From: a virus
Lineage: Duplodnaviria; Heunggongvirae; Uroviricota; Caudoviricetes
DNA: 64,000 nucleotides
Reading direction: 5' to 3' (one strand)
Virus record (IMG/VR): IMGVR_UViG_3300033124_000732
Shown here: positions 6,537 to 24,268 of the stretch, piece by piece
Numbering within the stretch: the stretch's first letter is position 1
Layout: every line of letters begins with the position of its first letter
Notes under the pieces: model-generated
What the model saw: only the letters and a program-made list of their open reading frames with translations
Told to the model about the DNA's origin: nothing
The model's database searches: none
Program-made: the position numbers and the translations under genes

Positions 6537-6541
6537 ATGTT

Positions 6542-6633: not shown

Positions 6634-6638
6634 ATGTC

Positions 6639-6796: not shown

Positions 6797-6873
6797 TTAT
6801 ATAATGAAATAGTGAACAGGATTTGCACCTGTGCCCACAGCCAACGACTGCACTCTACTACTAAGCTATCACC
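6797..6873 (-). other. tRNA-like remnant / structured spacer element
   Basis: Carries the same flanking motifs as neighbouring tRNAs (GTGTTTTTATAT on one side, TCACCATATAGGAACACACT on the other). T-loop is non-canonical (TGCAAAT) and the acceptor stem cannot be closed. Confidence 0.2.
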
Positions 6874-6940
6874 ATATAGGAACACACTAATTACGTATTG
6901 CCGCCTCCAGCAACAGTCGCTACTTCAATGTGTTTTTATA

Positions 6941-7015
6941 TGGTAGGGGCGCCGGGATTCGAACCCGAAATTGGCAGATTAAAAGTCTGCTGTGATACCG
7001 TTTCACCACACCCCC
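6941..7015 (-). tRNA. tRNA-Lys(UUU)
   Basis: Anticodon stem GCAGA/TCTGC with loop CTTTTAA. T-loop GGTTCGAATCC. Encoded CCA. Confidence 0.85.
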
Positions 7016-7115
7016 GGTATCTTATCACTCTTGTCACTACTCATGACAGTTCTCCTTTTGTAAAAATAAAAATAACCAGGGACCTAACTCGTCAAGGGAG
7101 AGTATGGCTATGAGT

Positions 7116-7193
7116 TGGTACCACCTGAGAGATTCGAACTCCCCGCCCCTGCGTTCGTAGCACAGTGCTCTAATCCAAATGAGCTAAGGTGGC
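7116..7193 (-). tRNA. tRNA-Arg(ACG)
   Basis: Anticodon loop CTACGAA. T-loop AGTTCGAATCT. Encoded CCA. Confidence 0.8.
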
Positions 7194-7404
7194 ATATTGA
7201 ATTTGAGAGTAGTAGCATCACTGTTATTGCTACCATTGACCCGTGTAATAAAGCCGGCCGGGAGGGTGATACGCCACTTGGGATACTTAACACACAGATT
7301 GATAACTTAGTTGTGTACGGAATCACGCCGCCCGTGCTTTACACTAGGTTGACCTTCGAAGAATCTTCCTAGCGTGTCTTTCTCTTGCTGACACTCTCAA
7401 AACT

Positions 7405-7478
7405 TGGTGCCCCACGACAGAATCGAACTGCCATCACAGGATTACAAAACCAGTGTACTACCATTGTACTAGTAGGGC
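7405..7478 (-). tRNA. tRNA-Thr(UGU) (probable)
   Basis: Clean acceptor, D- and T-arms. The anticodon arm has U-U mispairs; the best fold gives loop TTTGTAA. Confidence 0.6.
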
Positions 7479-7484
7479 GAATTG

Positions 7485-7574
7485 TGGTGGAAGACTAGGG
7501 AGTCGAACCCTATGACCCTATTACTAGAATCTACAGATTAGCAATCTGCTGCATTACCGTCCTGCCCGTCTTCC
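7485..7574 (-). tRNA. tRNA-Ser(GCU), type II
   Basis: 90 nt with a long variable arm. Anticodon stem CAGA/TCTG with loop TTGCTAA. Encoded CCA. Confidence 0.75.
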
Positions 7575-7579
7575 TGACT

Positions 7580-7655
7580 TGGCTCCCCAGCGTGGGATCG
7601 AACCACGGACACCTTGATTAACAGTCAAGTGCAACTACCGCTGTGCTACTGGGGA
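7580..7655 (-). tRNA. tRNA-Asn(GUU)
   Basis: Anticodon stem CTTGA/TCAAG with loop CTGTTAA. T-loop GGTTCGATCCC. Encoded CCA. Confidence 0.85.
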
Positions 7656-7695
7656 ATAATCTACTTAGTAGGCACTTGAGCCTACTACAAAAATA

Positions 7696-7788
7696 TGGTG
7701 GAGCAACTTGGAGTCGAACCAAGAATGTTTACCACGAGGGGACGGATTTACAGTCCGCCGATGCACACGCCATAGCATCAATTGCTCC
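7696..7788 (-). tRNA. tRNA-Tyr(GUA), type II
   Basis: 93 nt. Anticodon stem CGGA/TCCG with loop CTGTAAA. Long variable region. Encoded CCA. Confidence 0.7.
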
Positions 7789-7793
7789 ATATT

Positions 7794-7867
7794 TGGTGGA
7801 CCGAGGGAGAATCGAACTCCCAACTGAGGCTTGCAAAGCCACCGTTATCCCATTTAACTACCAGCCC
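7794..7867 (-). tRNA. tRNA-Ala(UGC)
   Basis: Anticodon loop TTTGCAA. T-loop AGTTCGATTCT. Encoded CCA. Confidence 0.75.
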
Positions 7868-7873
7868 AAATTT

Positions 7874-7947
7874 TGGCGTCCAGGGAGGGACTCGAACCCC
7901 CACAAACGGTTTTGGAGACCGTTGTGCTGCCATTACACCACCCAGAC
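7874..7947 (-). tRNA. tRNA-Trp(CCA)
   Basis: Anticodon stem ACGGT/ACCGT with loop CTCCAAA. T-loop GGTTCGAGTCC. Encoded CCA. Confidence 0.85.
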
Positions 7948-7959
7948 ATTAAATACAGC

Positions 7960-8571
7960 ATGAACATTACATTCACACCTGCGTCTAAAATTCTTTACTT
8001 TGCTGACATTCAAGATCCGCCATTTGACTGGCACACTTTGTGTCAAGCCTGCCAGGATCTCGCCTGGAATGTTGAACCCACAATTGGCAATCAAGATCAA
8101 TTTGCTGTGATGTGCTTGGCACCACACTGTGCTGCATTTGACCACCGACTCAATGCGTTTCAACAATATTTTGATGAAGATTTCAAACAACGTCTGTTGA
8201 ACCTGTTGTTTGACAACCCAGAGTTCATGATGACCTGGTGCATGCCTGACCGTAAACACTTTGACCGCATCACCAAACTCAATTGTAACTGGATAGGCAC
8301 TCCGGCCCGCTATGATCATCATCCCTGGCACCTTGACAGTCGCAATCAAGTGGCCTTTGGCATGATCTACTTTACTGAACAAGACAATCCATTGCACAGC
8401 ACTTGGTTTGACACTGGACTTTACGGCCACTTGTTGCGTGTACCTTCAGGTCCAGGACAAGGCTGGCTGGTGATCAATACCGATCAAGCTCGCCATTGCG
8501 GAATGAACAATACTGACAACATTCGCTACAGCTTCAAGTTCAGTCTTGACTTACTGACCAAACAAATCTAA
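7960..8571 (+). CDS. hypothetical protein (203 aa), plus strand
   Basis: ORF track 7873..8571, trimmed to the internal Met at 7960 because the 5' extension overlaps tRNA-Trp. No motif recognised. Confidence 0.45.
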   Translation: MNITFTPASKILYFADIQDPPFDWHTLCQACQDLAWNVEPTIGNQDQFAVMCLAPHCAAFDHRLNAFQQYFDEDFKQRLLNLLFDNPEFMMTWCMPDRKHFDRITKLNCNWIGTPARYDHHPWHLDSRNQVAFGMIYFTEQDNPLHSTWFDTGLYGHLLRVPSGPGQGWLVINTDQARHCGMNNTDNIRYSFKFSLDLLTKQI

Positions 8572-8760
8572 CACACTGTCTGCGGCATTTCAGCCCATGC
8601 CAGCTCAATGTGTGTATTAAAGCACTCTAAAATACTTAGGCTGCCTGTTCTTAAAGAACGCTTTAATACGCTCGGATTTTTTTATGTACAAGAACATAAG
8701 CCATCCCCGAGGCCGCCCATTTGTAGTTTAGAGTGATACAGGCTCGCGTTGCCGTTGCAC

Positions 8761-8792
8761 TAAATGAAAAACCCAGGGTTTTTACGCCTGGG
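8761..8792 (-). terminator. rho-independent terminator (minus strand)
   Basis: On the minus strand, stem CCCAGG/CCTGGG followed by TTTTTCATTTA, about 210 nt downstream of tRNA-fMet. Confidence 0.4.
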
Positions 8793-9001
8793 TCCTTGGG
8801 TAAGATACGGTTGTATACTACTTAGGACCCTCTGCCTCCTGGAATGCTATTCATGCGACCATAGGCGTGTGACCAAACTGGTGTCTGGGCAAACTTGGGT
8901 AGCAGTGAACAGAATTGTATTTTCATCATAAGTCCTATTGTACAGTATTTACCTTTCAAGGTCAACCACTGTGTTAAAGTTATTTAGCCTTTTGGCAAAA
9001 T

Positions 9002-9076
9002 TGGTTGCGGGAGACGGATTCGAACCGCCGATCTCTAGGTTATGAGCCTAGTGAGTTGCCGCTTCTCTATCCCGCG
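9002..9076 (-). tRNA. initiator tRNA-fMet(CAU)
   Basis: 5' CGCGGG... and 3' ...CCCGCAACCA as in E. coli tRNA-fMet. C1 opposite A72 is unpaired (the bacterial initiator hallmark). Anticodon loop CTCATAA. Confidence 0.85.
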
Positions 9077-10494
9077 ATATTTTATTTATATAGAAACACA
9101 TTCTATGCTTTGGGAATGACATTACTGTCAAGCGACCATCAACGGGTACGGAATGCGTTTGTATATAAAGTGGCGGACTGAGAATACATCCTAACCTAAT
9201 AGTGCCTCGAGCATTATTACAAACCTTGCGAGTCTGCTTTCTCTCGACTTCCACTAAGACCATATTGCTATGTATCCTAGTCCACTATCAGTATCGCCGT
9301 TTTTAAAGACAGGCAGTAGTCTTGTCATCACATGCTACTCTACACCATCTATCCCGTTGACCTTTAGAGCCATTCACTGTCGCTAAACAGTTACGAAACT
9401 TCCAGTATAAACAGATTTCACCTTGCGAGTTACGTCTGACTGTATTGCCTTGCGGCTACAGCATTAGATACTTTTCACACATGACCGAGTCAGTCTTTGC
9501 TTTTTTGTTAGATAGTGGTTATGAAGCCACAGCCTATTCCTTAACAGGGAATTGCTCTACGATGAGCTATATCAACCTACTGCGATGTGCTGACTCAGTT
9601 GCTTCATACTCTTTTGGAATACAAAATACAACACACCACGTTCCTTTTGTCTTGCGAACTACTCAGACGTCTTTTGCGATCAGTGTCGGGTCTCGGCTTT
9701 CGCGTACCTCCACCAACCACTAAAACTGCATACGAGCCCTTGGGTGCAACCCCTCGGACAAATACGCTACCCTTTCTCATACCAATTAACTGGGCTGGTT
9801 TTGTATAGAAGTCAGCACCACCTGTTACTTTCCACTGACTCCGGTTACCCTTGCGGGCCGGTAAGTCATTGTTCTTTCCTATACTCCCAGCGTCATTGTT
9901 ACAACCACCGGTCTTATCAGTGATCGGATCCTCACGGACCTGAGCAGGCTTGTTTACACGAACCATTGCTGGCGGAGTTGCGTAGGCTTACCTCCTTTGG
10001 CTGGGTCACCCCAGTTATTCTTCGTACAGCTGGGCGAACCATACTGCACAGGACAATAAACTGCCCTAAGTATCTATTGTATGACAAACGTCTTTTGTTG
10101 TCAAACTATTTTGGATAAACTGCCAAACAATCTATCCAAAATAGTTTCTATAGTCAAGCACCGAGAGCTACCCAATTTATGCGTCCTCCGCTAAGAGTGC
10201 AAAAGCCGATGGCGGTTATGTTAGGATCCGTTCCCGGCCGGTTGGACCCGAATAGTGATTGATCAGACCACGATACCCTTATCGATGCTTGACTATAAAA
10301 ACTAAAAGTTCGGATTTAAAAATCAAATCCTCCCACTGCTAACTACTGCTTCCCAATTTATCGTCCATCGGCACCCGTGGTAGGGCTTGCGATGCTCATC
10401 GGCCCTGAGTTCTAGCTCAGGTGATCCTTGGGATAGGACTGCTGGGCCTTAGCCTGCCCAGCATCAGGAAAATTAAATTCTCTGTATCGCTATG
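9077..10494. ncRNA. 1.4-kb non-coding region; candidate large structured RNA (GOLLD/ROOL-like?) next to tRNA-fMet
   Basis: No ORF above 120 aa in any frame. Higher GC than flanking genes. Numerous GC-rich hairpins (for example CCTGAG..CTCAGG, CTGGGC..GCCCAG, CCGGCCGG). Confidence 0.3.
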
Positions 10495-12433: not shown

Positions 12434-12908
12434 TGTATCTCCTTGTGTAAAGATTACAGTATACTATAGAACTTGTTTTGTGTCAACTAAATTAGTTGCT
12501 CTGCATCCCCCGGCGGTAATTATACCATAGTTACTTGCGTACCCAAGGCTTCCACCCGCTTCCCGACAGGGACCGCTATCGTGTTGCTAACGGCCTTTCG
12601 GTAAGAAGACTACCACCCTTGAGAGTCACCTCACTTCTTATCCTGCGGGTCACAGTATCCGCTAACCAAGCGGAACGTTAGGGGAGAGCCACGGTTGCAG
12701 GACCTAGTGCTCCGAAGAGGAAGTATCCAGGCGATGTGGCTCTCAAACTTGGTGCACCTAACAGGAATCAAACCTGTCTGCGTTTAGCTTCAAATCCAAC
12801 TCGCAATGGCAATCCAGCGCATAAACTTGGCGGTCCCAGGGGGTAACGATCCCCCTCCTCAGCAGTGACAGTGCTGTGTGCGTCCATGAACACCTTGAGA
12901 CCAAAACA
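12434..12908. ncRNA. non-coding structured region with a tRNA-like 3' module (T-arm plus ACCA at 12750-12790)
   Basis: No ORFs. On the minus strand, ACAGG-TTTGATT-CCTGT followed by TAGGTGC-A-CCA, but no complementary 5' acceptor strand within 400 nt. Many GC-rich helices upstream. Confidence 0.3.
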
Positions 12909-12983
12909 TGGAAGAGCGTAGGGGAGTCGAACCCCTCTTCTCAGGATGAAAACCTGATGTCCTAACCGATAGACGAACGCTCC
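12909..12983 (-). tRNA. tRNA-Glu(UUC)
   Basis: Acceptor stem GGAGCGT/ACGCTCT. Anticodon stem TCAGG/CCTGA with loop TTTTCAT. T-loop GGTTCGACTCC. Encoded CCA. Confidence 0.8.
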
Positions 12984-13653
12984 ATAGTTTCACTATATGA
13001 AAACACATTAGGATGTTTGATAGAGATCGCAGTTTCGAACCTGCCCTACTGTGTCGTCCACAGACTTGTCTATCAACCACATTACGGGCCAACTGGATCC
13101 GGCGTGCTTCGTCCTCTCAGAGGCTCTGAGTGATCTGCTTTCGTGTAGTCCAAGTAGAGCCTAGCCGTCACTAGGATTTAGTTCTCTACTTGGGTACCTA
13201 CCGGAGTTGGTAACCCAATGCGTTTACATATAGTGCCCAGAACTGAATCTGGGACACTATACAAAATTAAATTTTTAATGAAACCTCGCTAACTAGTCTC
13301 GATCGACTGCGTTATTAGATGGGCTGGAGCGGTCGTCTCCATTTAATGTTCTCCGCCTCGCCCTTAAGCATATTTCAGCGCGGTCTGGCCTTTAGAACAA
13401 CCCTAAAATTTTGCTTAGGCCGAGTCTCCAAACTCGCTTCGAATCCCTTGGTTACAACCCTTTTTGCATTTCTGCTGGGTTCTTACATTCGAGGATCGCC
13501 TTGCTTTCTAACTAGTCTCTAGTATAGCATCTTCTGCTTTACCGGTCAACTTGTTTTGTAAATGCCCCGCCTTGTTGCAGGGTCTTTACAAACTCGGCTG
13601 TTTCTCTAACTTGTATCTAGTATAACACCGATACATTTATTGGTCTACCGCCA

Positions 13654-13686
13654 TAAAAAAACCCGCCTACTTGGCGGGTTTTTTGG
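13654..13686. terminator. bidirectional rho-independent terminator
   Basis: AAAAAAA-CCCGCC-TACTT-GGCGGG-TTTTTT, 18 nt downstream of the porin stop codon. Confidence 0.8.
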
Positions 13687-13703
13687 TTTGTACTACTTCT
13701 GTT

Positions 13704-14585
13704 TTAGAACTGTACGACCAACCCGCCTGCTACTTGTCTAATATCACTGGCTGCTGAGGTTCCCTCAACATTGCGATACAGAACTTGTGCATAGGTCTTT
13801 TTGCTGAAAGCATACTCGGCACCTACGTTGTAGCTCTTGATGCCATTCTCAATGCGACCATAGCTGGCCTTCACTGTGATTGGACCACCAAGGTTGTGTG
13901 CCGCACCAACCAATTGACCACGGTTGGTATTGGCAGTTGCGCCTTTGTTGTCGCTGGCAATGCCATAAACTGTGGTTGCACCAAACTTGGCACGAGCAGC
14001 CACTACGTCACTGGTTTCTGCACCAGCTTCGTAACGAGCATAAGTTACCACTGCTGGACCCACTGCGGCAACCAATGAAGCAGCATAAGGATCGGTCGTA
14101 GCACCAGTGCTACGATCAAAACTAGCAGTCACATTGCCAAGGTTCACAGAAGTGAAAGCGGCATTACTGAAACGCAAACCACGCAGGTTATGCACGTCAG
14201 CGGCTGAGCTACCAATCAATGTGCCAAACGGATCATTGTTGCTGATGGCCAAGAAGTGAGTGTGAACGCTACGGCCTAGATCAACACTTCCCATTTTGTG
14301 AGCAATACCCACAGTGCTTTGACGATCGCCAAATGCAGTGGTGCTGGTTTCTGGGCTGTTGGCCTGGATATAGGTTTCGTATGTGGCACGAGCCTTCAAT
14401 CCGCCACCCAAGTCTTCGGTGGCACGAATGCCAAAGTGACTCAAATCATTTGCCATGCCTTGAACAGCAGCGGCTGTGCCAGTCTTGGTGTTGTCAAGGT
14501 AAGTGCCAACACGACCATAGATACCAACTTGTGCGCTTGCGACACCAGCAACTGCCAGGGTCAACGCAACTAGAACTTTCTTCAT
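13704..14585 (-). CDS. outer-membrane porin (Gram-negative general porin, Betaproteobacterial Omp32-like)
   Basis: Signal peptide MKKVLVALTLAVAGVASAQ. Alternating amphipathic beta-strand pattern, Gly/Ala/Thr-rich, C-terminal Phe (...LVVQF). Own terminator downstream. Confidence 0.75.
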   Translation of the reverse strand: MKKVLVALTLAVAGVASAQVGIYGRVGTYLDNTKTGTAAAVQGMANDLSHFGIRATEDLGGGLKARATYETYIQANSPETSTTAFGDRQSTVGIAHKMGSVDLGRSVHTHFLAISNNDPFGTLIGSSAADVHNLRGLRFSNAAFTSVNLGNVTASFDRSTGATTDPYAASLVAAVGPAVVTYARYEAGAETSDVVAARAKFGATTVYGIASDNKGATANTNRGQLVGAAHNLGGPITVKASYGRIENGIKSYNVGAEYAFSKKTYAQVLYRNVEGTSAASDIRQVAGGLVVQF

Positions 14586-14659
14586 GAATAATTTTCCTTG
14601 TTAAAATAAATGATCAAATGTCGATCATAGAGTAGTATATAGCACAAACACTAAGAATG

Positions 14660-15781
14660 TCAACTATTTTCGGTAAATTCTACAGGATTTTTAAAAGATT
14701 TAAACTGTTGTCCTGTAACTCTAGTGATATCAGCTAGTTCTTCTTCTAGTCGATGTTGGAATTCAGGTTGACAATATGGCTGATACTGATAATCTAATAA
14801 ATTTCTATAGCTGGTGCCCATGCGGTACAACAGGCGATTCTTTACATCGCCCAGTCTGCGATGCTGAGTGATTGAATTATCAAACAGCAACAAATCACCA
14901 TGTTGTGTTTTGTACCAATGATCGTACACATTATTTTCGGCAAACAGTTCAGTTTTGAGCTTGATCAACAATGCATCACTTTCCGGTTGGCTCATGCCCA
15001 CAAATCCTACCACTGTGTTTGGACTAAAATGCAAACCAGCAATTCCGCCGGGACTATTGATCCGCAACGGTAACTGATTGGGAGTTGGACAAAAGTTATG
15101 TTTGAACATGTGGTCTTGAACTAGATTCAATCCAGGATTGATTTTGCCTGGTTGGAATTCATGTTGGCAAACAAGCTCATCTAACTCACTGCGAAATGCT
15201 TCAGACTGATCTTGGTACCATCGAGCAGTGGTACTAAATCCGGTGCTACTGCCAATCACATGATCGATGGCCAACAAGCCCACGCCAGGAGTAAATGCTA
15301 GATGTCCAGATTCATTGCTGTGCCATAACAATTCTCCTTCAGCAAAAATTCCTAATCTACGACCTTGTTCATCTCGTTGTCCGCTAACTCGTTGAGCTTG
15401 TCCTGTACTAACTGGAGCACGAGTATAATCGCTTTCGGTAACAAATGACTGATCCTCAGGAGTTAGTGGATATACACCAGCCTTGAGATCTCTCCACATT
15501 TTATCAAATGCTTGATGTACTGGAAGATTGCTGTCCAGTTGTAGATTGTATTTTTTTAAAAATGTATAAGGACTAAGACTGTTACTTCTACCTAAAGCCA
15601 ACATCAATTCAGACCACCTATCTGGTGTAAGGTTGGTGCCTCTAAAAATTGTAACCAATGTGTCTAAGTGCAGTTTGCCATATACTGTTTGCCATTCTTC
15701 AATGCTGATATTTTCTAAATCAGCGCCGTCGACGAACACGCCGTAGTCACCTAAGCCGGGAATTTTTGTGATAGTTACCAT
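14660..15781 (-). CDS. TauD/TfdA-like Fe(II)/2-oxoglutarate dioxygenase (putative)
   Basis: 373 aa. The WHSNESGH...H pattern resembles the TauD-family HxD/E...H iron-binding site. Assignment from motif memory only. Confidence 0.45.
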   Translation of the reverse strand: MVTITKIPGLGDYGVFVDGADLENISIEEWQTVYGKLHLDTLVTIFRGTNLTPDRWSELMLALGRSNSLSPYTFLKKYNLQLDSNLPVHQAFDKMWRDLKAGVYPLTPEDQSFVTESDYTRAPVSTGQAQRVSGQRDEQGRRLGIFAEGELLWHSNESGHLAFTPGVGLLAIDHVIGSSTGFSTTARWYQDQSEAFRSELDELVCQHEFQPGKINPGLNLVQDHMFKHNFCPTPNQLPLRINSPGGIAGLHFSPNTVVGFVGMSQPESDALLIKLKTELFAENNVYDHWYKTQHGDLLLFDNSITQHRRLGDVKNRLLYRMGTSYRNLLDYQYQPYCQPEFQHRLEEELADITRVTGQQFKSFKNPVEFTENS

Positions 15782-16153
15782 ATGAGATACTTTTTAAGAT
15801 GTGGTAGCTTATTCTGTTACGAGGAAAGCTACCGAAACCCTAAGCAGTGTTTAGGCTGCTAATGCGAACTGTTCGTCGTTTGCGTTTACGTTTTTTGCTT
15901 CTACGGCCAGGAGACCCCAACCCTAACGGCTTCTGCTTTGCCGAGCTGTCCACTCTGTTACTCTTTGCCCTGTCGAAACTATGCAGGCCCATCAAAAACA
16001 TTTTGTAGTTAGAGCCGTTTTCATTCTAACCTTATGGTATTTGACGCATCTTTCGATGGTTACAAAATGTTTATGGTGGACCTGGGGGGATTCGCACCCC
16101 CGTCCAGAACACTTTTCTCTCGGCTTCATACAGCAATAACTTACAGTATATAT

Positions 16154-16342
16154 TTATTCTCGAGGTTTGTCAATAGCTTTGGAGATGATGTCATATACTT
16201 GGGAGTATGCATCTGTTATTTTGTCTAGCTGTTGTTCTGAAACCAAATCTGTATCTTCCAGACTAACCAAGTCCTGGGCCAGATTTTCCTGTAGTTTCTT
16301 TAGTTGATTAATCACATACCTATTTATAGAACAAACGGGCAA
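16154..16342 (-). CDS. possible small acidic protein (62 aa)
   Basis: ORF only. Its start lies inside the terminator hairpin at 16333-16353, so this is doubtful. Confidence 0.25.
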   Translation of the reverse strand: MPVCSINRYVINQLKKLQENLAQDLVSLEDTDLVSEQQLDKITDAYSQVYDIISKAIDKPRE

Positions 16343-16353
16343 AAGCCCGTTTG
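16333..16353. terminator. rho-independent terminator hairpin
   Basis: AAACGGGC-AAAA-GCCCGTTT followed by T-rich sequence, 25 nt downstream of the DctP-like gene's stop codon. Confidence 0.6.
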
Positions 16354-16377
16354 ATGTTTAGGTTGCTTGACGAGTAA

Positions 16378-17322
16378 TTAGGCGTTTTGAATCTTGCCAA
16401 CTAACCCAGCTGTAAAGGTATCTGCAAATTGCTCGTACACTTTGGCTGTTGCCTTGCGGAAAGTTTGCTCATCAGCGTCGCTAAATTTGATAACACGAAT
16501 GCCATCTTGTTCACAACGAGCTTTGGTTGGCTCAACTTCAGCCACAGCAACGGCACGTTCAAAACGACCAGCTTCTAATGCAGCTTCTTTCATGACTTCT
16601 TGCAGATTTTCAGGCAAGCTGGCCAAGAAGTTCTTGTTTACAATAATGTTGGTCAACAGCAAACGATGGTTGGGTTCTAAAATAGTTTCAGCAACTTCGT
16701 TTTGTTGGCAAGCATAGATACGTGGCCATGAGCTTTCGCCACCATCAATAGCACCATCTCGGATGCCTTCAGCCACACGCTCCACATCCATCACAACAGG
16801 ATCTGCGCCCAATGCACTCCATGTAGCAGCCGCCACTGGTGAATTTGACACACGAACTTTGACGCCAGCCATTTCGCTTAGGCTAGCAACTTCACGGTTC
16901 ATGGGCATGTTCATAAAGCCACCTGAGTATGTAAACGCCATACCTTTGATATTGCTGTTTTTGGTGTAGCCATCCAACAAGCTCTCGCCAATTTCACTTT
17001 CAAACACACGTGCCGCATGATTGTGATCACGGAACAAGAAAGGCAAATCAAGTGCGTCAAGGTCATTGTTGTACTTGCTGAGCACATAGGTATACATCTG
17101 ACTCATTTCAATGGCGCCTGAATCCATGATGTCCAACAGGTTGTGTTTGGTGATTGGTTCACCATGATTGTACTTGCTGGTGTACTCGCTCAGAGTCAGC
17201 ACTTCAATGTTGAATTGACCGGGTGCTCGGGCTTCTACTACCTCAGTAAATTTTTCAGCGGCACGAATAAAAATGTCGATAGGTTCATGGGCTAATACCC
17301 ATTTGATGTGGATAGGTTTCAT
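16378..17322 (-). CDS. TRAP-transporter DctP-family solute-binding protein homolog (no signal peptide)
   Basis: GVKVRVSNSPV...ALGADPVVMDVERVAEGIRDGAIDGGE matches the DctP consensus (LKIRV..SP...ALGA.PVPM...EVY.ALQ.GVVDG.EN). 314 aa. N-terminus is not hydrophobic. Confidence 0.6.
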   Translation of the reverse strand: MKPIHIKWVLAHEPIDIFIRAAEKFTEVVEARAPGQFNIEVLTLSEYTSKYNHGEPITKHNLLDIMDSGAIEMSQMYTYVLSKYNNDLDALDLPFLFRDHNHAARVFESEIGESLLDGYTKNSNIKGMAFTYSGGFMNMPMNREVASLSEMAGVKVRVSNSPVAAATWSALGADPVVMDVERVAEGIRDGAIDGGESSWPRIYACQQNEVAETILEPNHRLLLTNIIVNKNFLASLPENLQEVMKEAALEAGRFERAVAVAEVEPTKARCEQDGIRVIKFSDADEQTFRKATAKVYEQFADTFTAGLVGKIQNA

Positions 17323-17452
17323 AATATTTTTCCTTGAGTAATAGCTTGCATGTGTATGCTACGGTGGGCGTTCTAGGCATGTGCTAGTAAAGGGCATTGC
17401 CCAAGCGTCCAGTGTTTCCGACGTCAGCCCCTGCTGGCGTTGCTATTTTTAT

Positions 17453-18376
17453 TTAGCTTCCGCGGGCATCTTGTATTTGTTTGCTGTAGTGCTTTCTTAG
17501 TGTTTTTAAGGATTCTATGCGAGATCGGTAAAATTGCTGTGCGCTTACTCCGTCAAATACAGGACTCCGCATGTCGCTAAGGTGTTGTATTTCTTTTAAT
17601 CCCACGTCTTTTGTTGCTTGGTCAAGAATACGACCAATAGCCGCTTGTTTTTCTGCAGGCATTGACTGATGAGCCATTACAATGTTTATAACCCCGGGTA
17701 AATTTACCCCTTGTTCTTTTAAGGTAGCAACATTCATGTTATCATATCTTGTAGGGCAACTCATGCCCACCACTCTAATGTTGGGATTTTTTTCACGAAA
17801 TTGATCAATTATTGAATATCGTTCAATAGCAAAGTTTACCCCGTGATTACCTACCAAGTTTACCAGCGCATCGTAGTTGCTTTTAAATAATACTACTCGA
17901 ACTGGAACTCCAACCCGCTCGCCAATTGCCAACCCTGTTAAATGTGTGACGTTCCCTACGCCAACAGTTCCTACAGTAATTTCTTGGATGTTTTTTAAAC
18001 TGGAAATTCCCTGAGATTCGTTACCGCCTAATGTAATTACAGCCCAGCATGCTTCACCAATAGCATGAACTGGTTTCCAGTCATTTTCCTGTACTAGATT
18101 GTTTTCTACAAGCTCTACAAAAGCAGCGTTAATTATAGCCAATCGTTGTTCACTGTTCTCGCTTGCTGTCTTTAACGCAATTAGTCCTTGCGCTCCGGGT
18201 TTAAGATCAAATTGAAACCGATACTGAGATTGTGATTGGTTAGCTTTGTCGACTACTCGTTGGAAGGCTGCATTACCGCCATGACTAGCACTGTATGGTG
18301 TATACACCGTGACAGTTTCTTGCGAGTGCGCAAGGCTAGCACAGCACACTAGAATAGTAGTTAAGAGTTTTTTCAT
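17453..18376 (-). CDS. Bug/TctC-family periplasmic binding protein (1 of 3)
   Basis: Signal peptide MKKLLTTILVCCASLAHSQ. YTPYSASHGGN resembles the TctC PFxxGGxxD motif. About 307 aa. Start ATG at 18376, 2 nt after the upstream gene's stop. Confidence 0.65.
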   Translation of the reverse strand: MKKLLTTILVCCASLAHSQETVTVYTPYSASHGGNAAFQRVVDKANQSQSQYRFQFDLKPGAQGLIALKTASENSEQRLAIINAAFVELVENNLVQENDWKPVHAIGEACWAVITLGGNESQGISSLKNIQEITVGTVGVGNVTHLTGLAIGERVGVPVRVVLFKSNYDALVNLVGNHGVNFAIERYSIIDQFREKNPNIRVVGMSCPTRYDNMNVATLKEQGVNLPGVINIVMAHQSMPAEKQAAIGRILDQATKDVGLKEIQHLSDMRSPVFDGVSAQQFYRSRIESLKTLRKHYSKQIQDARGS

Positions 18377-18377
18377 G

Positions 18378-19562
18378 TTAAAATTTATAATGGTTGTTAA
18401 TACCTGAGCTTTCAAAGTCGGCTTCTCCCAGGTAATAAAAGGGCGATAAAAACCCCACAAAGCCGACTGGTTGTCCTATTTCTTTGTTAAAATATTTGTT
18501 GTCAATAGTTTTTACTAGATGTGCAAGGCCTGCTTGCCACTTGGCATACTGTGCAGTTTCTTTGAAGTTGGTGTAAAACCAATGATCCATCTCGTTGTAA
18601 AAGCTATTGGTTGGCTTGCTGGTTTGAAATGTTTCTTGATTGTACTGTGGATAGATCAAGGGTTTGATCAAGTGCTCGTATGTTGTGCGATGGGTGTAGC
18701 TGTAGTTTGGCCAACGGCACACATACTGCATGTGTTTGTTGTGCTCCAGCATAAACCAGTTCTTGACCATGTGGCATTGTTTAATAAACATTTCTGGCAA
18801 GTCAGGGGTCCAGTAAAAATATTCATTAGTCATGTTGGTGTAATCACCAAAATCGCCCATGCTATGGTTGGCCATAACATCGATAAAATAAGCGTACCAC
18901 TTTTTATCCTTGATGCATAGCTTGGGTTTGTCTACCCCGTATAAAATACAAATACGTTGACCAGTGTCTGCTAGTTTTTTGTGGCCTTCGTAACCAGTTG
19001 CTGAATGTTTGAATGCATGTCCAGGTTGGAAATAATCTTTAGTTTTCATGACCCAAGACTCGTCATACACTTGAGTTAGCATGTTTTCACTATAGTCGTG
19101 CGTGGTAATTTTTGTGCGCGGCGACGCAGTAGTTAACCAGTCCAGCACAGGATACGCTGCATACTTTGCTTCGCTTAGAGTGTTCTCAGGTTTACAGTTA
19201 AACGGATCATCGCTAACATTTTTTTCACCAGTCTTAGGATAACGAAACACAACTTCATCAAGGTGTATGCCGTTGTTGATAAAACTATACAATGCAGTAG
19301 TTGAATCTCCCCCGCCAGAAAATTCTAAACGAATATAATCGTACTTGTCTCGTAATTGTTGCGCACGAATTCGATACAGATCTAGGATATTGATATTGGG
19401 TTCAACCAACCAATTTTCAGCGCCAAATACTTCATTGTTGAAATTCCATTCGGGGAATTGATTAGTTTCAGTAGCCTTAGTCAGTGCCATTGGTTTACTG
19501 TAAAATTTTTCTTGTCCCACAGTGTAGTATCCTAATTTGGGATTTTGTTCAATTTTTATCAT
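18378..19562 (-). CDS. PP-loop ATP pyrophosphatase-family protein, paralog A (394 aa)
   Basis: SGGGDS PP-loop motif (LEFSGGGDSTTAL) preceded by YRIRAQQLRDKYDY. Paralogous to 19564..20712 and 24959..26119. Confidence 0.7.
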   Translation of the reverse strand: MIKIEQNPKLGYYTVGQEKFYSKPMALTKATETNQFPEWNFNNEVFGAENWLVEPNINILDLYRIRAQQLRDKYDYIRLEFSGGGDSTTALYSFINNGIHLDEVVFRYPKTGEKNVSDDPFNCKPENTLSEAKYAAYPVLDWLTTASPRTKITTHDYSENMLTQVYDESWVMKTKDYFQPGHAFKHSATGYEGHKKLADTGQRICILYGVDKPKLCIKDKKWYAYFIDVMANHSMGDFGDYTNMTNEYFYWTPDLPEMFIKQCHMVKNWFMLEHNKHMQYVCRWPNYSYTHRTTYEHLIKPLIYPQYNQETFQTSKPTNSFYNEMDHWFYTNFKETAQYAKWQAGLAHLVKTIDNKYFNKEIGQPVGFVGFLSPFYYLGEADFESSGINNHYKF

Positions 19563-19563
19563 G

Positions 19564-20712
19564 CTAGGTTCCTATATCATATGCACGACTGCTCAATACT
19601 TTAAATCCTTTTTTGATGTCTGCTGGATTTCTTTTTAAAAATACTGGAGTCTGATTCCACCGGTATTCTAATCCGGTCTGCCACGTGTGTTTGGCTATGT
19701 CATTGTCTGGTAACGAAAAGAACCAACTGTCTCTGTTACTAAAAATCAAGCTAGACGGCTTGAATTGATATGGTAGAGGCTTCCAGTTTGGATAGAGTGC
19801 AGTATGTATACCATTGGAGGTTACCCAGTAAATTTTGCCGTCGATAGACACTACAGGATTTCTATCATTGTAGATTGTCGACACAAACGGTGAATTAGGC
19901 CTAAGTTGTTTCATAAATTTTTTTAACACATGGGCTTGTTTAATGACCAATGTTGGCATGTCAGGAGTCCAATAAAACATTTCATCAAACAATCCAGGGA
20001 AGCCGTCAATTTGATTATGTGTTACTGTGGCGGCATCCAAAATGTCTCTGAACACCAAACTCCATTTTCCGTTGATACCTACTATCTTGGGTTTGTCAAT
20101 TCCGTGTATAAATCCCACTTTCTTGCCAGCGTTGATCATATCCATCCAGTGAGGTTGTGTTTTTACAACCAATGTTCTTGCATGGTAATTGGGATTCACG
20201 TATTGATTTACTTTATGTACCCAATCAAATTTATTTTGTTGGTTGGCAAAGTAGTCTATAGTGAGTTGACAAATATCAATCAGTGTGTGCCGAATCCATG
20301 GTTGAGATGTTTCTTGCAAATGTTGAATCTTGGGCACTGTGAGATTGAAAATTTCACCGTTGAGATAGTCGTTGGTGTCGCCAGTAGCAGCCACGTTAAT
20401 TAACCCAGCGGCTTCATCAAGTTTGATATTATTTTCTACAAATGTATTGAGAATATTGTCGCAATCCGAGCCTCCTGAATACCATAACACCAGATAATCA
20501 TAGGTATCTCTTAGCTGTTGAGCACGTTCACGGTACAGTTCAGACAGACTTTGTGTGGATGGTCGAGCCCAATCATAAGCACTGAATATTTCATCGTTGT
20601 AGTGCCAAGTTAGTGGTTGATTGATTTTTTCTGCAACCAATGCCGCGTCAAACTTGCTATAAAATTTTAAGTTACCAACGCGATAAAATCCAAACTTATC
20701 TTTATCTTGCAT
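19564..20712 (-). CDS. PP-loop ATP pyrophosphatase-family protein, paralog B (382 aa)
   Basis: LWYSGGSDCDNIL PP-loop and YRERAQQLRDTYDY. Shares motifs with paralog A (FYWTPD, GxDKPK). Confidence 0.7.
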   Translation of the reverse strand: MQDKDKFGFYRVGNLKFYSKFDAALVAEKINQPLTWHYNDEIFSAYDWARPSTQSLSELYRERAQQLRDTYDYLVLWYSGGSDCDNILNTFVENNIKLDEAAGLINVAATGDTNDYLNGEIFNLTVPKIQHLQETSQPWIRHTLIDICQLTIDYFANQQNKFDWVHKVNQYVNPNYHARTLVVKTQPHWMDMINAGKKVGFIHGIDKPKIVGINGKWSLVFRDILDAATVTHNQIDGFPGLFDEMFYWTPDMPTLVIKQAHVLKKFMKQLRPNSPFVSTIYNDRNPVVSIDGKIYWVTSNGIHTALYPNWKPLPYQFKPSSLIFSNRDSWFFSLPDNDIAKHTWQTGLEYRWNQTPVFLKRNPADIKKGFKVLSSRAYDIGT

Positions 20713-21643
20713 CTATGTTTGCTCGATTAAGTATCTTCTTGAACTTTCGAAACTCAATAGACAAAAAAGATCGTGGAATTTGTTTTCCAATACTCTGCAA
20801 GCCTGCGTCTTTCAATTGCTCTCGAACATCAGCTCGTTGCATTAATCGACGTAACGCTTCTCGAACTTGTGTGATTTCTACAGCAGGTGCTGAAGTATTA
20901 ACTACCAACACAAACCAATTGTAAAAATCATAATCGTTATTGCCAATGTCTGTCATACTGGGTAAGTTGGGAAAATCTGAATTACGCATGCGATCCACAC
21001 TTAGCAATGGTCGAAATAATTGAGTATCAATATAAGGTCGAACACTGGTTACAAAATCTGTAACTATATCAATGTGTCGACCTTGCAGATCAACAAGTGC
21101 TGGGCCTACGCCCTTGTATGGTACATGTGTGCTTGAACACTGCAAAGTTTCCATCACAATTGACGATGAAATGTGTGTGGCAGACCCAATGCCTGCGCTG
21201 CCGTATGCGATTGGTCTTCGGCGACATTCACGTTGAAGATCTTGAATGGTGTGTATACTGCTGGCAGCATTTACAACCAACAACATGGGAATGTGTCCAA
21301 GATATTCCAATGGAACAAAATCTGTTTCTAAATTGTAATTCACAGCTGATGCATTTACAATTGATGCAGTGACTACTGCATTTGGAGCCATGAGTATTTG
21401 TAATTTGTCAGACCGTGCTACCATAGATGCCGCAAGAGTACTGCCACCGCCGGGACGATAGCTCAACACAGGATTAAAATTATAATTGGCCAATTCTTCG
21501 CGCATGGGACCGATAAGGCTTACTGCAAGTCGGTCCGCAGTACCACCGGGTGCAAAAGGAACAACAAACTCAATGTTACGTTGAGCTTGTGCTACTGTAG
21601 CTAAAAAAACTAAAGCCAGAGCAAGTAATTTACTTTTGATCAT
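20702..21643 (-). CDS. Bug/TctC-family periplasmic binding protein (2 of 3)
   Basis: VVPFAPGGTADRLAR, YGSAGIGSATHIS and VPYKGVGPALVDLQGRHID match TctC/Bug signatures. Signal peptide MIKSKLLALALVFLATVAQAQ from the ATG at 21643; the ORF-track first codon at 21670 is TTG. Confidence 0.8.
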   Translation of the reverse strand: MIKSKLLALALVFLATVAQAQRNIEFVVPFAPGGTADRLAVSLIGPMREELANYNFNPVLSYRPGGGSTLAASMVARSDKLQILMAPNAVVTASIVNASAVNYNLETDFVPLEYLGHIPMLLVVNAASSIHTIQDLQRECRRRPIAYGSAGIGSATHISSSIVMETLQCSSTHVPYKGVGPALVDLQGRHIDIVTDFVTSVRPYIDTQLFRPLLSVDRMRNSDFPNLPSMTDIGNNDYDFYNWFVLVVNTSAPAVEITQVREALRRLMQRADVREQLKDAGLQSIGKQIPRSFLSIEFRKFKKILNRANIDAR

Positions 21644-21676
21644 AGTACTCTGGTTTGTTGTTGTTTTCAAATTGAA

Positions 21677-23308
21677 TCATGCTATTCCTGCACTGTGATA
21701 TCCGCGATGTATTGTACGTGAATCATCTAAGAATTCTTGCCAACGATCAGCGTATTTGACGCTTAACGCATGATTGGAAAACACTTCTCTAAGAATTTGG
21801 TTGACCACGCGAGGCGATACAGAACCACTATTATACAAGTTCAACAGTAGTTGTGTAAAGTATTTTTTTTCCCAAAGTGGTGGAATACTTTTGTTAAACT
21901 CATCAAACTCTTCCAAAGTTACTCCAAACCATGATAGCATTTTGTAAGTAATTTGAGTGAAGTTAAAATACGCTATGTCCAGCTCGTTAAAACTAAAACT
22001 ACCACTGATCATGCTGTGCTTGTTATTTTTGATTTCTCGTGTGCGTATTTGAAATTTTTTCATATACTCGGGATCATACACCGCTGGCGAATTGGGTATG
22101 ATGATCCAGGTGTAAAACTCCAGGCACAAATTCAATTGGTATGCCTCACGCAACAAATGCTGCCAAGTTTTGCGTGTTTGTCCAGGTAGACCTTTGATTC
22201 CTTCTAACGAAAATGTTCGATCAGGAAACCGTGACTTCAAATGGCGGATGTATGTTTTGTGTTCTTCCCAAGAAATATCTGGACGGTCTATGTTGGCCAG
22301 GATTGTGGGATCTATGTCTTGTACTGCAAATTTGCCACCTTCGCACACTCCTGCGTCTATCCAAATTTCTAAAATTTCGTATGCTCGGTCTTTTTTGTTT
22401 TTGCTGAGGTTGGGGCTTTGTGTTTTGATTCCACGTGGCGGCAAAATTTCAGCCATGAGCCGAGCAATTTCTACATCCACTGGCCATTGTCCAAAGTTGG
22501 CATCACTAATGTGTAGTTGTGTAATGCCTAACTCAGCAATCATTTCCAGTTCCGCTCTGTAATCTACCTTGCGTTTGACTGTGGTTGGCCCAAGCCCCGA
22601 AGTCCAGTCACAGAAACTGCAACTGTAGGGACACCCTCTTGAAGTTTCGTAACTGAGCTCAAACTCATATCCATGATATTCTGGATCACCTACCATTTGT
22701 TTTAGTAGATGTTGACTTTCTAAATATGGACTATACTCGGTATTTTTGATGTAGGCTGCTGGAGCCTTTTGCAGTTGATCGTTTTTGACCCACAGCAAGT
22801 TATGAGTGTTTAGAATATTTAAACTTCTGTCATAAAAATGATGACACAATATGTCGTGGAATGCTTGCTCGCCATCAGAGAACACAGCGTAGTCTGCATC
22901 TTCGTAGTCTTGTCTCCAGTCATACGTGCCATGTGCTTCAATACTAGGGCCGCCCACAATCACAATCACATCATGATTGATTTGACTTTTGAGATTGCGT
23001 GTGAGATTGATAATTGTTGGCCGGTTCCAGTTGTAAACACTAAAACATATCACATTGCACTTGTGTTGATTCACATAGTCCACAACTTGTTGTTGTGTCC
23101 AGGTGTTTACACTGATCTTGTTCCAGGTCAGATCTTCGTACAGTGTGGGATTTTTTATTTTAATGTAACTATCAAGATAGCACGGAACAGTACTGAGATA
23201 CACGCTATAGTCATATTCAAATTCTTGGTCCAATAAATTTGTTTCAGCACGATATCTTGCACCGTGAACTACACTTGGACAACTGAAGAATATTTGAATC
23301 TTTGACAT
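21677..23308 (-). CDS. radical SAM enzyme with N-terminal cobalamin-binding-like domain (543 aa)
   Basis: CxxxCxxC in ETSRGCPYSCSFCDW. N-terminal Rossmann-like B12-binding region (VIVIVGGPSIEAHG). Confidence 0.75.
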   Translation of the reverse strand: MSKIQIFFSCPSVVHGARYRAETNLLDQEFEYDYSVYLSTVPCYLDSYIKIKNPTLYEDLTWNKISVNTWTQQQVVDYVNQHKCNVICFSVYNWNRPTIINLTRNLKSQINHDVIVIVGGPSIEAHGTYDWRQDYEDADYAVFSDGEQAFHDILCHHFYDRSLNILNTHNLLWVKNDQLQKAPAAYIKNTEYSPYLESQHLLKQMVGDPEYHGYEFELSYETSRGCPYSCSFCDWTSGLGPTTVKRKVDYRAELEMIAELGITQLHISDANFGQWPVDVEIARLMAEILPPRGIKTQSPNLSKNKKDRAYEILEIWIDAGVCEGGKFAVQDIDPTILANIDRPDISWEEHKTYIRHLKSRFPDRTFSLEGIKGLPGQTRKTWQHLLREAYQLNLCLEFYTWIIIPNSPAVYDPEYMKKFQIRTREIKNNKHSMISGSFSFNELDIAYFNFTQITYKMLSWFGVTLEEFDEFNKSIPPLWEKKYFTQLLLNLYNSGSVSPRVVNQILREVFSNHALSVKYADRWQEFLDDSRTIHRGYHSAGIA

Positions 23309-24268
23309 TTATTTTGGTAACAGATGCTGATATTTTTTATACAGTCGTTCTCGACTGTCATAGTATGTGTTGTAAAACTGTCTAGCTCGAACTAAGTCAC
23401 CGCCTAATGGCACATTGCCGCGACGCACTAAAGAGGCAGCAGTGTCTGAATCAACAACTGCTTGGTGCCATGCCCAGTTGAGATATTCAAGTACATGAAC
23501 AGGTGTGCCACGAGGCGCAAACAAGCCATTGTAATTTACAGTAACAACTCCATTGTAGATTTCTGCTAATGCAGGAATGTTAGGATGTTGTGCAGAGCGT
23601 GTGCGACTGCCTACTGCTAGTACTTTGACCTTTTTAGCGTCTATCAATCCTTGTGCATCTCCAATGGCTGATAACACAAATGCTGTTTCGTTAGCAGCCA
23701 CTGATCGTAAAGTCTCTGCTTGACTTTTGTACGCCACTGGTTGAATATCTTGCACCCGCGCAGTTTCTAAGAACGCCTCAGTCATCAGTGTTTGAATGCC
23801 GCCCACTGTGGCGTAACTCAATCGTTTTTGTTGTTGAAGATACGCAACAAACTCTTGCACAGTACTAGCTGGTGTGTCTGCACCAACAATCAACGCAAGG
23901 CTGCTTTCTATGCTGGCCGACACTGGTACTAATTGATCTCTTGATGGTGCATTTGGTAACCCTTGAATGGCGTTCACCATGGCTGGACCAGTTTCAAATT
24001 GCCCTAGGGTCAGCCCATTGGGTTCTGATTGCGTCAACGCCTGAGTACCAATGGTGCCACTGGCACCTGGACGATTGGATACTATGATGTTTACCCCAGT
24101 GATTTGTTCCACAGTCTTGGCCAATTGCCTTGCGGTAATATCGCTGTTGCCTCCAGGGCCGTACGGCACAATAACAGTGATGGTCTTGCCTGTCAGTTCA
24201 GCAGGAATGTCTCGTGCGTGTGTGGTCACGCACAGTGATAATAGCAGTAGTGTTAGTAGTTTCTTCAT
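23309..24268 (-). CDS. Bug/TctC-family periplasmic binding protein (3 of 3)
   Basis: Signal peptide MKKLLTLLLLSLCVTTHA. IVPYGPGGNSDITAR motif. 319 aa. Confidence 0.75.
   Translation of the reverse strand: MKKLLTLLLLSLCVTTHARDIPAELTGKTITVIVPYGPGGNSDITARQLAKTVEQITGVNIIVSNRPGASGTIGTQALTQSEPNGLTLGQFETGPAMVNAIQGLPNAPSRDQLVPVSASIESSLALIVGADTPASTVQEFVAYLQQQKRLSYATVGGIQTLMTEAFLETARVQDIQPVAYKSQAETLRSVAANETAFVLSAIGDAQGLIDAKKVKVLAVGSRTRSAQHPNIPALAEIYNGVVTVNYNGLFAPRGTPVHVLEYLNWAWHQAVVDSDTAASLVRRGNVPLGGDLVRARQFYNTYYDSRERLYKKYQHLLPK

Follow-up and report, generated by a model that had tools for sequence, protein, structure and literature searches.

Why should a phage encode a porin for the outer membrane of its host, and what is such a gene doing beside genes for solute-binding proteins? 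The question is raised by a 64,000-nucleotide (64-kb) stretch of DNA from a virus of the class Caudoviricetes (IMG/VR virus record IMGVR_UViG_3300033124_000732), hereafter called the window, in which genes for a porin, a TauD-like oxygenase and a homolog of the solute-binding protein DctP follow one another. These genes stand at the distal end of an accessory block on the minus strand, variable and running from position 26633 down to 13656 (Table 1). By their sequences, the porin and three TctC-type binding proteins would be targeted to the cell envelope, and the DctP homolog, three PP-loop-like proteins, a radical S-adenosylmethionine (SAM) enzyme and the TauD-like protein would stay in the cytoplasm.

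Single uptake genes are a known cargo of phages, PstS in cyanophages being one example, and host-like porins occur in a few lambdoid phages. New here is a porin family seen so far on phage contigs alone, with a cassette design that is kept at 30–40% identity. The reading that we favour, while giving it a little less than an even chance, is that the products of the block remodel the envelope in a way that would boost the uptake of organic acids. The evidence for it comes from sequence comparison and predicted models, and is set out below with the readings that compete with it; the related loci that were compared with the window carry labels such as L005, L014–L018 and L033.

The Porin Gene Has Its Own Promoter and Terminator

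The most robust new result is that the porin gene is a self-contained unit of promoter, gene and terminator, and that this layout is conserved. An earlier note on this DNA had claimed a perfect intrinsic terminator for the porin, and such a terminator is present at 13656–13684: a perfect hairpin of 12 bp with six G-C pairs and a loop of five, followed by a T-tail (core -15 kcal/mol). The hairpin is flanked by an A-run as well as a T-run and is therefore bidirectional in form. At the other end of the gene, the stop codon TGA of the TauD-like gene falls within the -35 hexamer of the porin promoter, and the ribosome-binding site of the porin is AAGGA. This promoter and a transfer-messenger RNA (tmRNA), both within the part that the earlier note described, had been overlooked there.

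The conservation of the layout was counted with the other genes of the same porin loci as the comparison set. A hairpin with a T-run within about 45 nt of the stop codon follows the porin in 33 of 37 loci, against 45 of 479 other genes (p = 4e-26), and in 24 of 37 loci the 120 nt upstream of it contain a sigma70 site that matches at 10/12 or better, against 58 of 479 (p = 2e-12). An own promoter and terminator, kept across loci, are marks of a moron, yet a moron would also be dispensable in close relatives, and the closest ones retain the porin. Promoters of the same TTGACA...TATACT type also stand ahead of the tmRNA, ahead of a tRNA cluster and at two other sites in the window, which suggests that the porin, like the tRNA and tmRNA genes, is transcribed by the RNA polymerase of the host and in one temporal class with them. 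Under the uptake reading, the host polymerase would transcribe the cassette independently of its neighbors and probably at an early stage, given that it shares its promoter type with the tRNA and tmRNA genes.

A stretch free of open reading frames (ORFs) lies between tRNA-Glu and the porin terminator (12990–13650), with two sigma70-like promoters in it (13647–13619 and 13549–13521). Its segment 12990–13282 (300 nt) is 77.6% identical to L032, a locus whose porin is just 48% identical, and has in it a T-loop-like GGTTCGAAAC as well as a hairpin whose conservation includes one compensatory change; neither Rfam nor ARAGORN calls an RNA in it, and we regard the segment as a candidate for a new non-coding RNA.

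A Porin of the Omp32/PorB Type With Trimmed Loops

The identity of the protein is clear from two Pfam families, each above its cut-off (PF13609, 83.3 bits with a cut-off of 27; PF00267, 32.3 bits with a cut-off of 23.7). The signal peptide and C-terminal Phe that had been described for it are both found: the N-terminus, MKKVLVALTLAVAGVASA followed by QV, reads as a Sec-type signal peptide of residues 1–18, judged by its pattern of n-, h- and c-regions and by the structural model (helix 2–14, barrel from residue 19), and the C-terminus ...VVQF ends in F293, which is invariant in 34 family members. The precursor would be exported via Sec and inserted by the β-barrel assembly machinery (BAM), with the C-terminal Phe as the signal.

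An AlphaFold (AF2) model made from the 34 family members (predicted local distance difference test score, pLDDT, 92; predicted template modeling score, pTM, 0.85) predicts a signal helix followed by a 16-strand antiparallel barrel. In this model the constriction loop L3 (108–137; 30 aa) carries two short helices and is folded inward, and L2, the "latching" loop, spans 73–88 (16 aa). The surface loops L1 and L4–L8 have just 2–7 aa each. Among solved structures the top Foldseek match is Omp32 of Delftia with malate (2fgq; E 7.5e-17, template modeling score 0.81), followed by Omp38 of B. pseudomallei, OmpU of Vibrio cholerae and PorB of Neisseria. Consistent with this, the family profile finds PorB (2.2e-25), Omp38 (1.4e-17) and Omp32 (3.7e-17) in the PDB well ahead of E. 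coli PhoE (just 3e-5), and the earlier assignment to the betaproteobacterial Omp32 type agrees with both comparisons.

Omp32, PorB and BpsOmp38 are trimeric general porins of Betaproteobacteria, and the phage porin, which is probably trimeric too, has in common with them the signal peptide, the C-terminal Phe, the 16 strands and L3. It differs in its sequence (~20% identity; 31 bits against the NCBIfam PorB model, with a cut-off of 480), in the length of the mature protein (~273 aa against ~310–340), in being phage-encoded with no close bacterial relatives found, and in L1 and L4–L8, which are far longer in Omp32, PorB and OmpF. The residues R38, R75 and R133 of Omp32, together with E58, we take to be its basic constriction cluster. 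R75, R133 and E58 align to R88, R138 and E70 of the phage porin, with R88 and R138 nearly invariant in the family; the position aligned to R38 is 50, an Arg in the family consensus and His50 in the window porin. Under the uptake reading the protein would form a pore like that of Omp32 and PorB, probably trimeric and anion-preferring, with minimal surface loops.

The earlier note had put forward altered outer-membrane permeability and a block to superinfection as possible roles of the porin. Minimal loops also suit the main rival explanation, receptor replacement or superinfection exclusion, which we consider possible though clearly the less probable of the two. Here the loop-trimmed porin would flood the outer membrane and displace or mask a host porin that serves as receptor for this phage or its competitors, and infected cells and debris would cease to adsorb phages with their basic permeability kept. 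There is precedent in the porin Lc of the lambdoid phage PA-2 and in NmpC of the cryptic prophage DLP12, enterobacterial porins of the OmpC/OmpF type that closely resemble host genes and come from temperate phages, and which replace OmpC/OmpF in lysogens and alter phage sensitivity. The window porin resembles them as a general porin that is a phage accessory gene and may change the porin complement of the host outer membrane; it differs in forming a distinct clade, seen on phage contigs so far, of betaproteobacterial type and with trimmed loops. As expected of a surface under biotic selection, substitutions among 120 close homologs concentrate in the short surface loops, where 14 of 30 sites are variable in L1 and L4–L8 against 43 of 245 elsewhere (odds ratio 4.1, p = 6e-4), an enrichment that is not significant when L2 and L3 are counted as surface (p = 0.18). 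This is weak evidence, since loops are less constrained and such variation is expected in any porin.

Distribution of the Porin and Origin of the Contig

The best 120 database matches to the porin are all at least 92% identical. Searched exhaustively among representative sequences, it has relatives in 38 clusters at under 1e-30 and in 93 at under 1e-10; almost all of them have a length of 285–315 aa and share its signal peptide and C-terminal Phe. Relatives with 30–88% identity are found at 55 IMG/VR loci. Each relative whose context could be established belongs to a viral or phage-like contig, and of 73 representative clusters only 17 connect to a viral locus at 50% identity or more. The porin matches no PHROG family, tblastn found no match to it in 50,697 GenBank phage records, and BFVD holds remote porins of "uncultured Caudovirales phage" alone (18–19% identity). 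A motif scan of one genome per species, covering 185,579 bacterial and archaeal species, returned no porin relative; it used two motifs from a six-sequence alignment, taken in place of the 34-sequence alignment, which is too diverse for locus scans, and remote bacterial relatives could escape it.

The last result is one of several that speak against the contig being bacterial, or the flank of a prophage, with genes that are ordinary host genes, an explanation that we reject as barely credible. It does account for functions that look cell-like (a full tRNA set, the tmRNA, a SAM synthetase, the porin and the binding proteins), and some loci of the DctP family are located in metagenome-assembled genomes (MAGs). 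The window, however, contains 30 tRNA genes for all 20 amino acids, in tight arrays together with a GOLLD RNA and in addition to the tmRNA. Among its products are a family-B DNA polymerase of phage type (phrog_262, 7.9e-83) and a 5'-3' exonuclease, and the majority of its ORFs are without any family match; no ribosomal RNA was detected in it, and about 40 larger ORFs scanned gave no match to a ribosomal-protein family. A relative of the TauD-like protein (58% identical) is flanked by genes for a T4-type portal and a prohead protease on the 362-kb contig of L008. The locus itself is found identical on metagenome contigs of up to 90.9 kb, and its close relatives, with an SPFH protein that is 97% identical, are IMG/VR contigs of 98–364 kb. 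The window shows no integrase, and megablast of 13000–18500 against GenBank phages gave no match. In our reading the contig belongs to a jumbo-type phage, large and from freshwater, with an apparently lytic-type genome. The earlier note had likewise treated it as phage DNA and not as a bacterial flank, a view that these findings uphold.

The same note had called the genes host-like, which is right only in part: as a hint at recent gain from the host, the description runs against the evidence. The guanine-cytosine content at third codon positions (GC3) is 0.44 for the porin and 0.40 ± 0.05 for phage genes, with the porin, TauD-like and DctP genes all within the range; the relatives of the porin are on phage contigs, and the TauD-like protein belongs to a long-standing phage family. 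Recent acquisition from a host was considered and rejected on these grounds, GC3 being that of phage genes and the gene families lying deep within phages. The evidence, including the span of 30–88% identity over the 55 IMG/VR loci, points to a long residence in phages.

A Variable Block of Binding Proteins Upstream

Upstream of the DctP gene the block continues with a TctC-like gene, two PP-loop-like genes, a second TctC gene, a radical SAM gene, a third TctC gene, a gene for a 231-aa protein, another PP-loop-like gene and a gene for a 175-aa protein. L014–L018, whose porin is 87% identical, have the porin immediately after the 175-aa gene and lack the whole block of binding proteins; we conclude that the block is cargo that varies, with the porin as its stable end. 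The SPFH protein of these five loci is far more conserved than the porin (97% against 87%).

The three TctC-type genes are the Bug paralogs that the earlier note had mentioned; they lie outside the part it described, and one is a weak match. This divergent copy (17453–18376) falls below the Pfam threshold and is linked by BLAST to TctC2 and to TctC-like genes of other phage loci. TctC1 matches the solved carboxylate binders TphC, BugE and BugD (1e-25 to 1e-22). A Sec signal peptide is found on every TctC-like protein of the window and of related phages. As in the orphan binding proteins of the Bug/TctC group (BugD, BugE, TphC, AdpC), a signal peptide is present and adjacent TctAB genes are absent, as they are for most Bug genes; the phage copies differ in being three divergent paralogs, 22–25% identical to each other, and in being interleaved with PP-loop-like genes. 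Neither a TctA- nor a TctB-like polytopic partner was found in the 64-kb window, where the only multi-pass membrane ORFs are those at 401–976 and 49505–50131, both on the minus strand and each with four predicted segments; by their N-terminal sequences the two resemble proteins of the TerC type and of the YhhQ/queuosine-precursor-transporter type. Because the window encodes no membrane component, the secreted TctC proteins would dock on TctAB of the host. Together with the porin they would increase the inflow of organic acids during infection, and so fuel the replication of a very large genome.

A TctC, PP-loop or DctP gene lies within 8 kb of the porin at 11 of 39 distinct loci. This linkage extends to porins with 35–37% identity, in L090 (TctC, PP-loop, porin) and L093 (porin, TctC). 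The radical SAM protein of the block matches the NCBIfam model NF033712 at 1.8e-30, which is under the cut-off of that model.

A DctP Homolog Without Signal Peptide and Its PP-Loop-Like Neighbors

The DctP homolog scores above the cut-offs of PF03480 (188.4 bits; cut-off 23.4) and of NCBIfam NF037995, TRAP_S1 (124.9; cut-off 50), and under that of TIGR00787 dctP (129.9; cut-off 175). It aligns end to end with solved binding proteins of transporters of the tripartite ATP-independent periplasmic (TRAP) type in the PDB (1e-26 to 1e-12), and it has neither a signal peptide nor a lipobox. That absence is real, because the ORF is already maximal and its start, MKPIHIKWVLAHEP, aligns to the mature start of TRAP binding proteins. 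The best 120 matches (54–97% identity; 314–328 aa; on contigs of up to 357 kb) start at the mature region as well, and all members of the phage family that were inspected lack a signal peptide, so that the cytoplasmic ligand-binding role suggested in the earlier note is supported. R157, in the motif KVRVSNSP, is invariant in 15 sequences and aligns with the K-I/V-R of 4xfe, 4p47 and 4ovs; we take it to be the carboxylate-binding Arg that acts as selectivity filter. Full-length homology and this Arg are thus shared with the TRAP binding proteins (DctP/SiaP, PF03480), from which the window protein differs by having no export signal, no DctQ/DctM partner and a Ser in place of the Asn of the "EN" motif (GESSWP). 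No DctQ/DctM membrane partner is encoded in the 64-kb window, which has no ORF with more than four predicted transmembrane segments, and no such partner turned up at the subfamily's phage or bacterial loci; the bacterial ones carry a major facilitator superfamily (MFS) gene instead.

The scan of species genomes returned 23 bacterial DctP loci with 36–53% identity, in Bdellovibrionota, Alpha-, Beta- and Gammaproteobacteria and Polyangiaceae. Given this spread from Bdellovibrionota to Polyangiaceae, the DctP gene says nothing about a Burkholderiales host, to which it had been thought to point. Most of the bacterial relatives lack a signal peptide, and one subclade centered on Bacteriovoracaceae has one. 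Matches to DctP found by tblastn against phages (18–25% identity, in short unannotated fragments, "Bacteriophage sp." contigs and bacterial scaffolds) were uninformative.

Gene neighborhoods bring the PP-loop-like proteins to the fore. DctP adjoins PP-loop genes in every phage locus seen; five of the loci with a signal-less bacterial DctP have it beside a 400-aa protein with the same SGGxDS PP-loop motif, and in seven it adjoins a conserved 200-aa protein, with an MFS transporter ahead in six. The 200-aa protein (start MKDWTYKLLP.LP.PP) has no Pfam match, and a copy with 39–41% identity occurs in the phage locus L033. The recurrent partner of the DctP subfamily in phages and cells thus appears, suggestively, to be a PP-loop ATPase-like protein. 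The family (~380–430 aa; one to three paralogs per phage, interleaved with TctC-like genes) is also present in L005, L031, L033, L041, L056, L062 and L090. Its alignment has invariant S82, G83, G84 and D86 within the motif YDY..L.[FY]SGGxDS, and conserved DKP, FYW.P and KQAH. It has no sequence match in Pfam, PHROG, NCBIfam or the PDB; an hhalign comparison with the asparagine synthase of the window and with a bacterial neighbor matched the PP-loop segment only, at 25–36% probability. The model from the three paralogs is of low confidence (pLDDT 48; 70–85 around the motif), and its top fold matches, at E ~1e-3 only, are LarE, GMP synthetase and NAD synthetase.

Under the uptake reading the DctP-like protein would act outside any TRAP importer, in the cytoplasm, binding a carboxylate by its conserved Arg, and most likely with the adjacent PP-loop enzymes. 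Another explanation of the block is that the DctP, PP-loop, radical SAM and TauD-like proteins, possibly with the TctC-like ones, make or modify a carboxylate metabolite or cofactor and the porin is a bystander. We think this unlikely as the account of the locus. It would make sense of the DctP/PP-loop pairing in phages and in the five bacterial loci, of the 200-aa partner shared by seven bacterial loci and L033, and of the abundance in the window of SAM synthetase, radical SAM enzymes, methyltransferases, aminotransferase, epimerase and asparagine synthase; LarE, NAD synthetase and GMP synthetase, moreover, adenylate carboxylates or carbonyls. It has to contend with the TctC signal peptides, which imply action outside the cytoplasm, with the weak fold evidence for the PP-loop proteins, and with the TauD-like and radical SAM proteins not being conserved partners at other loci; nor can its product be named. 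Such a pathway can coexist with either uptake or receptor replacement. Two further, linked possibilities seem to us improbable: that the signal-less DctP, PP-loop and 200-aa proteins form an undescribed cytoplasmic system of large phages and of bacteria (Bdellovibrionota, Alpha-, Beta- and Gammaproteobacteria), with the binding protein capturing a carboxylate metabolite and passing it to an adenylating enzyme, and that in these phages the system is joined to the secreted TctC proteins and the loop-trimmed porin in an end-to-end viral scavenging route that reaches from outer membrane to cytoplasmic metabolism.

The TauD-Like Protein and the tmRNA

The TauD-like oxygenase of the earlier note, like the porin and the DctP homolog, is where it had been placed. 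It matches PF02668 (50 bits; cut-off 27) and, over its full length, phrog_24590 "taurine catabolism dioxygenase" (274 bits, 2.9e-81), and is ~40% identical, again full length, to proteins of the Prochlorococcus phages P-HM1, P-HM2 and MED4-213. By sequence it is a member of a known phage family that is shared with marine cyanomyophages and carries the annotation of an auxiliary metabolic gene. In place of the iron-binding HxD of TauD/TfdA, the whole phrog_24590 family has WHSNE, the LWHSD of TfdA aligning to LWHSN; 17 family members all have W153, H154, N156, E157 and H307, and the distal His307 and Arg316/Arg320 are kept. The window protein thus lacks the canonical 2-His-1-carboxylate triad (HxD...H). 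Glu157 could stand in for the missing Asp, and the metal site may be non-canonical, with membership in the fold family clear. We know of no demonstration that taurine is a substrate of this phage family.

Between the DctP and TauD-like genes sits a tmRNA, recognized by Rfam as beta_tmRNA (RF01850, 108.8 bits; threshold 84) and tmRNA_permuted (RF04321, 119.4 bits; threshold 47). Permuted tmRNAs are known in Alpha- and Betaproteobacteria and in Cyanobacteria (PMC11915505). The tmRNA abuts the start codon of the TauD-like gene, with no terminator between them.

An outer membrane channel and a two-piece tmRNA behind an early promoter are likewise found in pelagimyophages and in the Methylophilales phage Melnitz, for whose CsgGF pores a secretin- or pinholin-like role in release has been proposed, and uptake also (PMC9004378). 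The window has a porin and a tmRNA in the same way; CsgG/CsgF is, in contrast, a nonameric curli secretion channel with no relation in sequence or fold to a 16-strand diffusion porin. These phages, aquatic myophages of streamlined heterotrophs that encode outer membrane pores absent from their hosts (PMC9004378), lend some color to the idea that a late-acting porin depolarizes or weakens the envelope and thereby affects the timing of lysis, as does L005, where the DctP/TctC block adjoins lysis-type genes (Glyco_hydro_19, LysC). We regard this as very unlikely for the window: a general-diffusion porin in the outer membrane leaves the inner membrane polarized, a promoter of the sigma70 type shared with tRNA and tmRNA genes suggests early and not late expression, and the porin is not adjacent to lysis genes.

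Uptake or Receptor Replacement

Several points weigh against the uptake reading. The anion preference of the porin is inferred from two or three aligned Arg residues and the fold match, and the assignment of the PP-loop family, from a motif and a low-confidence model, is suggestive. L014–L018 keep the porin alone, and its benefit is therefore not dependent on the binding proteins; at 28 of 39 porin loci there is no TctC, DctP or PP-loop gene nearby. A phage-specific porin family is a description that holds for the placed part alone, many clusters at 30–45% identity being without known provenance. To our knowledge, the permeability of the outer membrane has not been established as a limit on uptake by the host. 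Minimal loops and a moron-like cassette fit receptor replacement at least equally well.

Receptor replacement gains further from the conservation of the promoter-gene-terminator layout, and from the fact that most porin loci have no transport partner and the closest relatives keep the porin by itself. What it leaves unexplained is the recurrent adjacency of TctC genes, down to a porin identity of 35%.

The Host and the Remainder of the Window

A betaproteobacterial host is a reasonable conclusion from the type of the porin, the beta-type tmRNA, the TctC paralogs and the binning of two related loci; a Burkholderiales host is plausible. These two, L077 and L084, are DctP-like contigs (guanine-cytosine content, GC, 0.47) binned in a Polynucleobacter MAG, and L077 also has a PP-loop-like gene. 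They are probably misbinned phage DNA and as such a weak lead to the host. The GC of the window is ~0.44, and a value of ~0.44 is compatible with Polynucleobacter.

Beyond the block, metabolic genes are dense across 33695–63946 (methyltransferases, a GT2 glycosyltransferase, an aminotransferase, an NAD-dependent epimerase/dehydratase and an asparagine synthase), a set that suggests a pathway for the modification of sugars or small molecules. A tRNA-like match (9506–9576) lies inside the GOLLD RNA.

Table 1. Features of the porin locus and its surroundings; positions refer to the window unless a locus label precedes them.
Feature	Position	Strand	Details
Intrinsic terminator of porin	13656-13684	-	AAAAAACCCGCC-AAGTA-GGCGGGTTTTTT, 20 nt past stop codon
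Porin precursor, 293 aa	13704-14585	-	Pfam Porin_4 3.5e-23, Porin_1 9.4e-08
Sigma70-like promoter of porin	14634-14663	-	TTGACA-N18-TATACT, 11/12 match
TauD/TfdA-family oxygenase homolog, 373 aa	14660-15781	-	Pfam TauD 5e-13
Permuted (two-piece) tmRNA, betaproteobacterial type	~15783-16187	-	ARAGORN 15760-16166, tag ANDEQFALAA
Promoter-like site of tmRNA	16173-16145	-	TTGACA-N17-TATACT, at 5' end
62-aa ORF, doubtful reality	16154-16342	-	
DctP-family (TRAP-type) solute-binding homolog, 314 aa	16378-17322	-	Pfam DctP 2.2e-55
Divergent TctC-like protein	17453-18376	-	Signal peptide MKKLLTTILVCCASLAHS, then QE; Pfam 0.032, 14.2 bits
PP-loop-like tandem paralogs, 394 and 382 aa	18378-19562, 19564-20712	-	Motif SGGxDS
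TctC2	20702-21670	-	Signal peptide MIKSKLLALALVFLATVAQA, then Q; Pfam TctC 1.6e-33, 116.9 bits
Cobalamin-binding radical SAM protein, KedN5-type C-methyltransferase-like	21677-23308	-	B12-binding 4.4e-11, Radical_SAM 4.6e-10
TctC1	23309-24268	-	Signal peptide MKKLLTLLLLSLCVTTHA, then R; Pfam TctC 2.9e-38, 132.4 bits (cut-off 27)
231-aa gene	Between TctC1 and third PP-loop paralog	-	
Third PP-loop-like paralog, 386 aa	24959-26119	-	Alignment to tandem pair
175-aa gene	26106-26633	-	Upstream edge of variable block
tRNA clusters, three	2286-9076, 12828-12983, 26640-26897	-	Including three tRNA-Met and tRNA-Ile (tat) with long insertion
GOLLD RNA, full-length	9175-9639	-	Rfam RF02032, 203.8 bits, E 4.4e-56; within tRNA array
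SPFH/Band-7 protein	28309-29103	-	Lipoprotein-type signal (LATGC)
SAM synthetase	43629-44729		
B12-radical SAM enzyme, second in window	47448-49421		
SPASM radical SAM enzyme	59924-60916		
200-aa DctP partner	L089:7387-7989, L072:556-1161, L078:11362-11988, L033:5873-6412		

Implications

If the uptake reading is true, large freshwater phages re-engineer both the permeability of the host envelope and the capture of solutes, which would alter the flow of carbon through infected lake cells, and the porin would be a naturally minimized scaffold. If instead the porin replaces a receptor, the family would represent a widespread mechanism of exclusion. The pairing of a cytoplasmic DctP with PP-loop proteins suggests, for its part, an undescribed intracellular job for binding proteins of the TRAP type.

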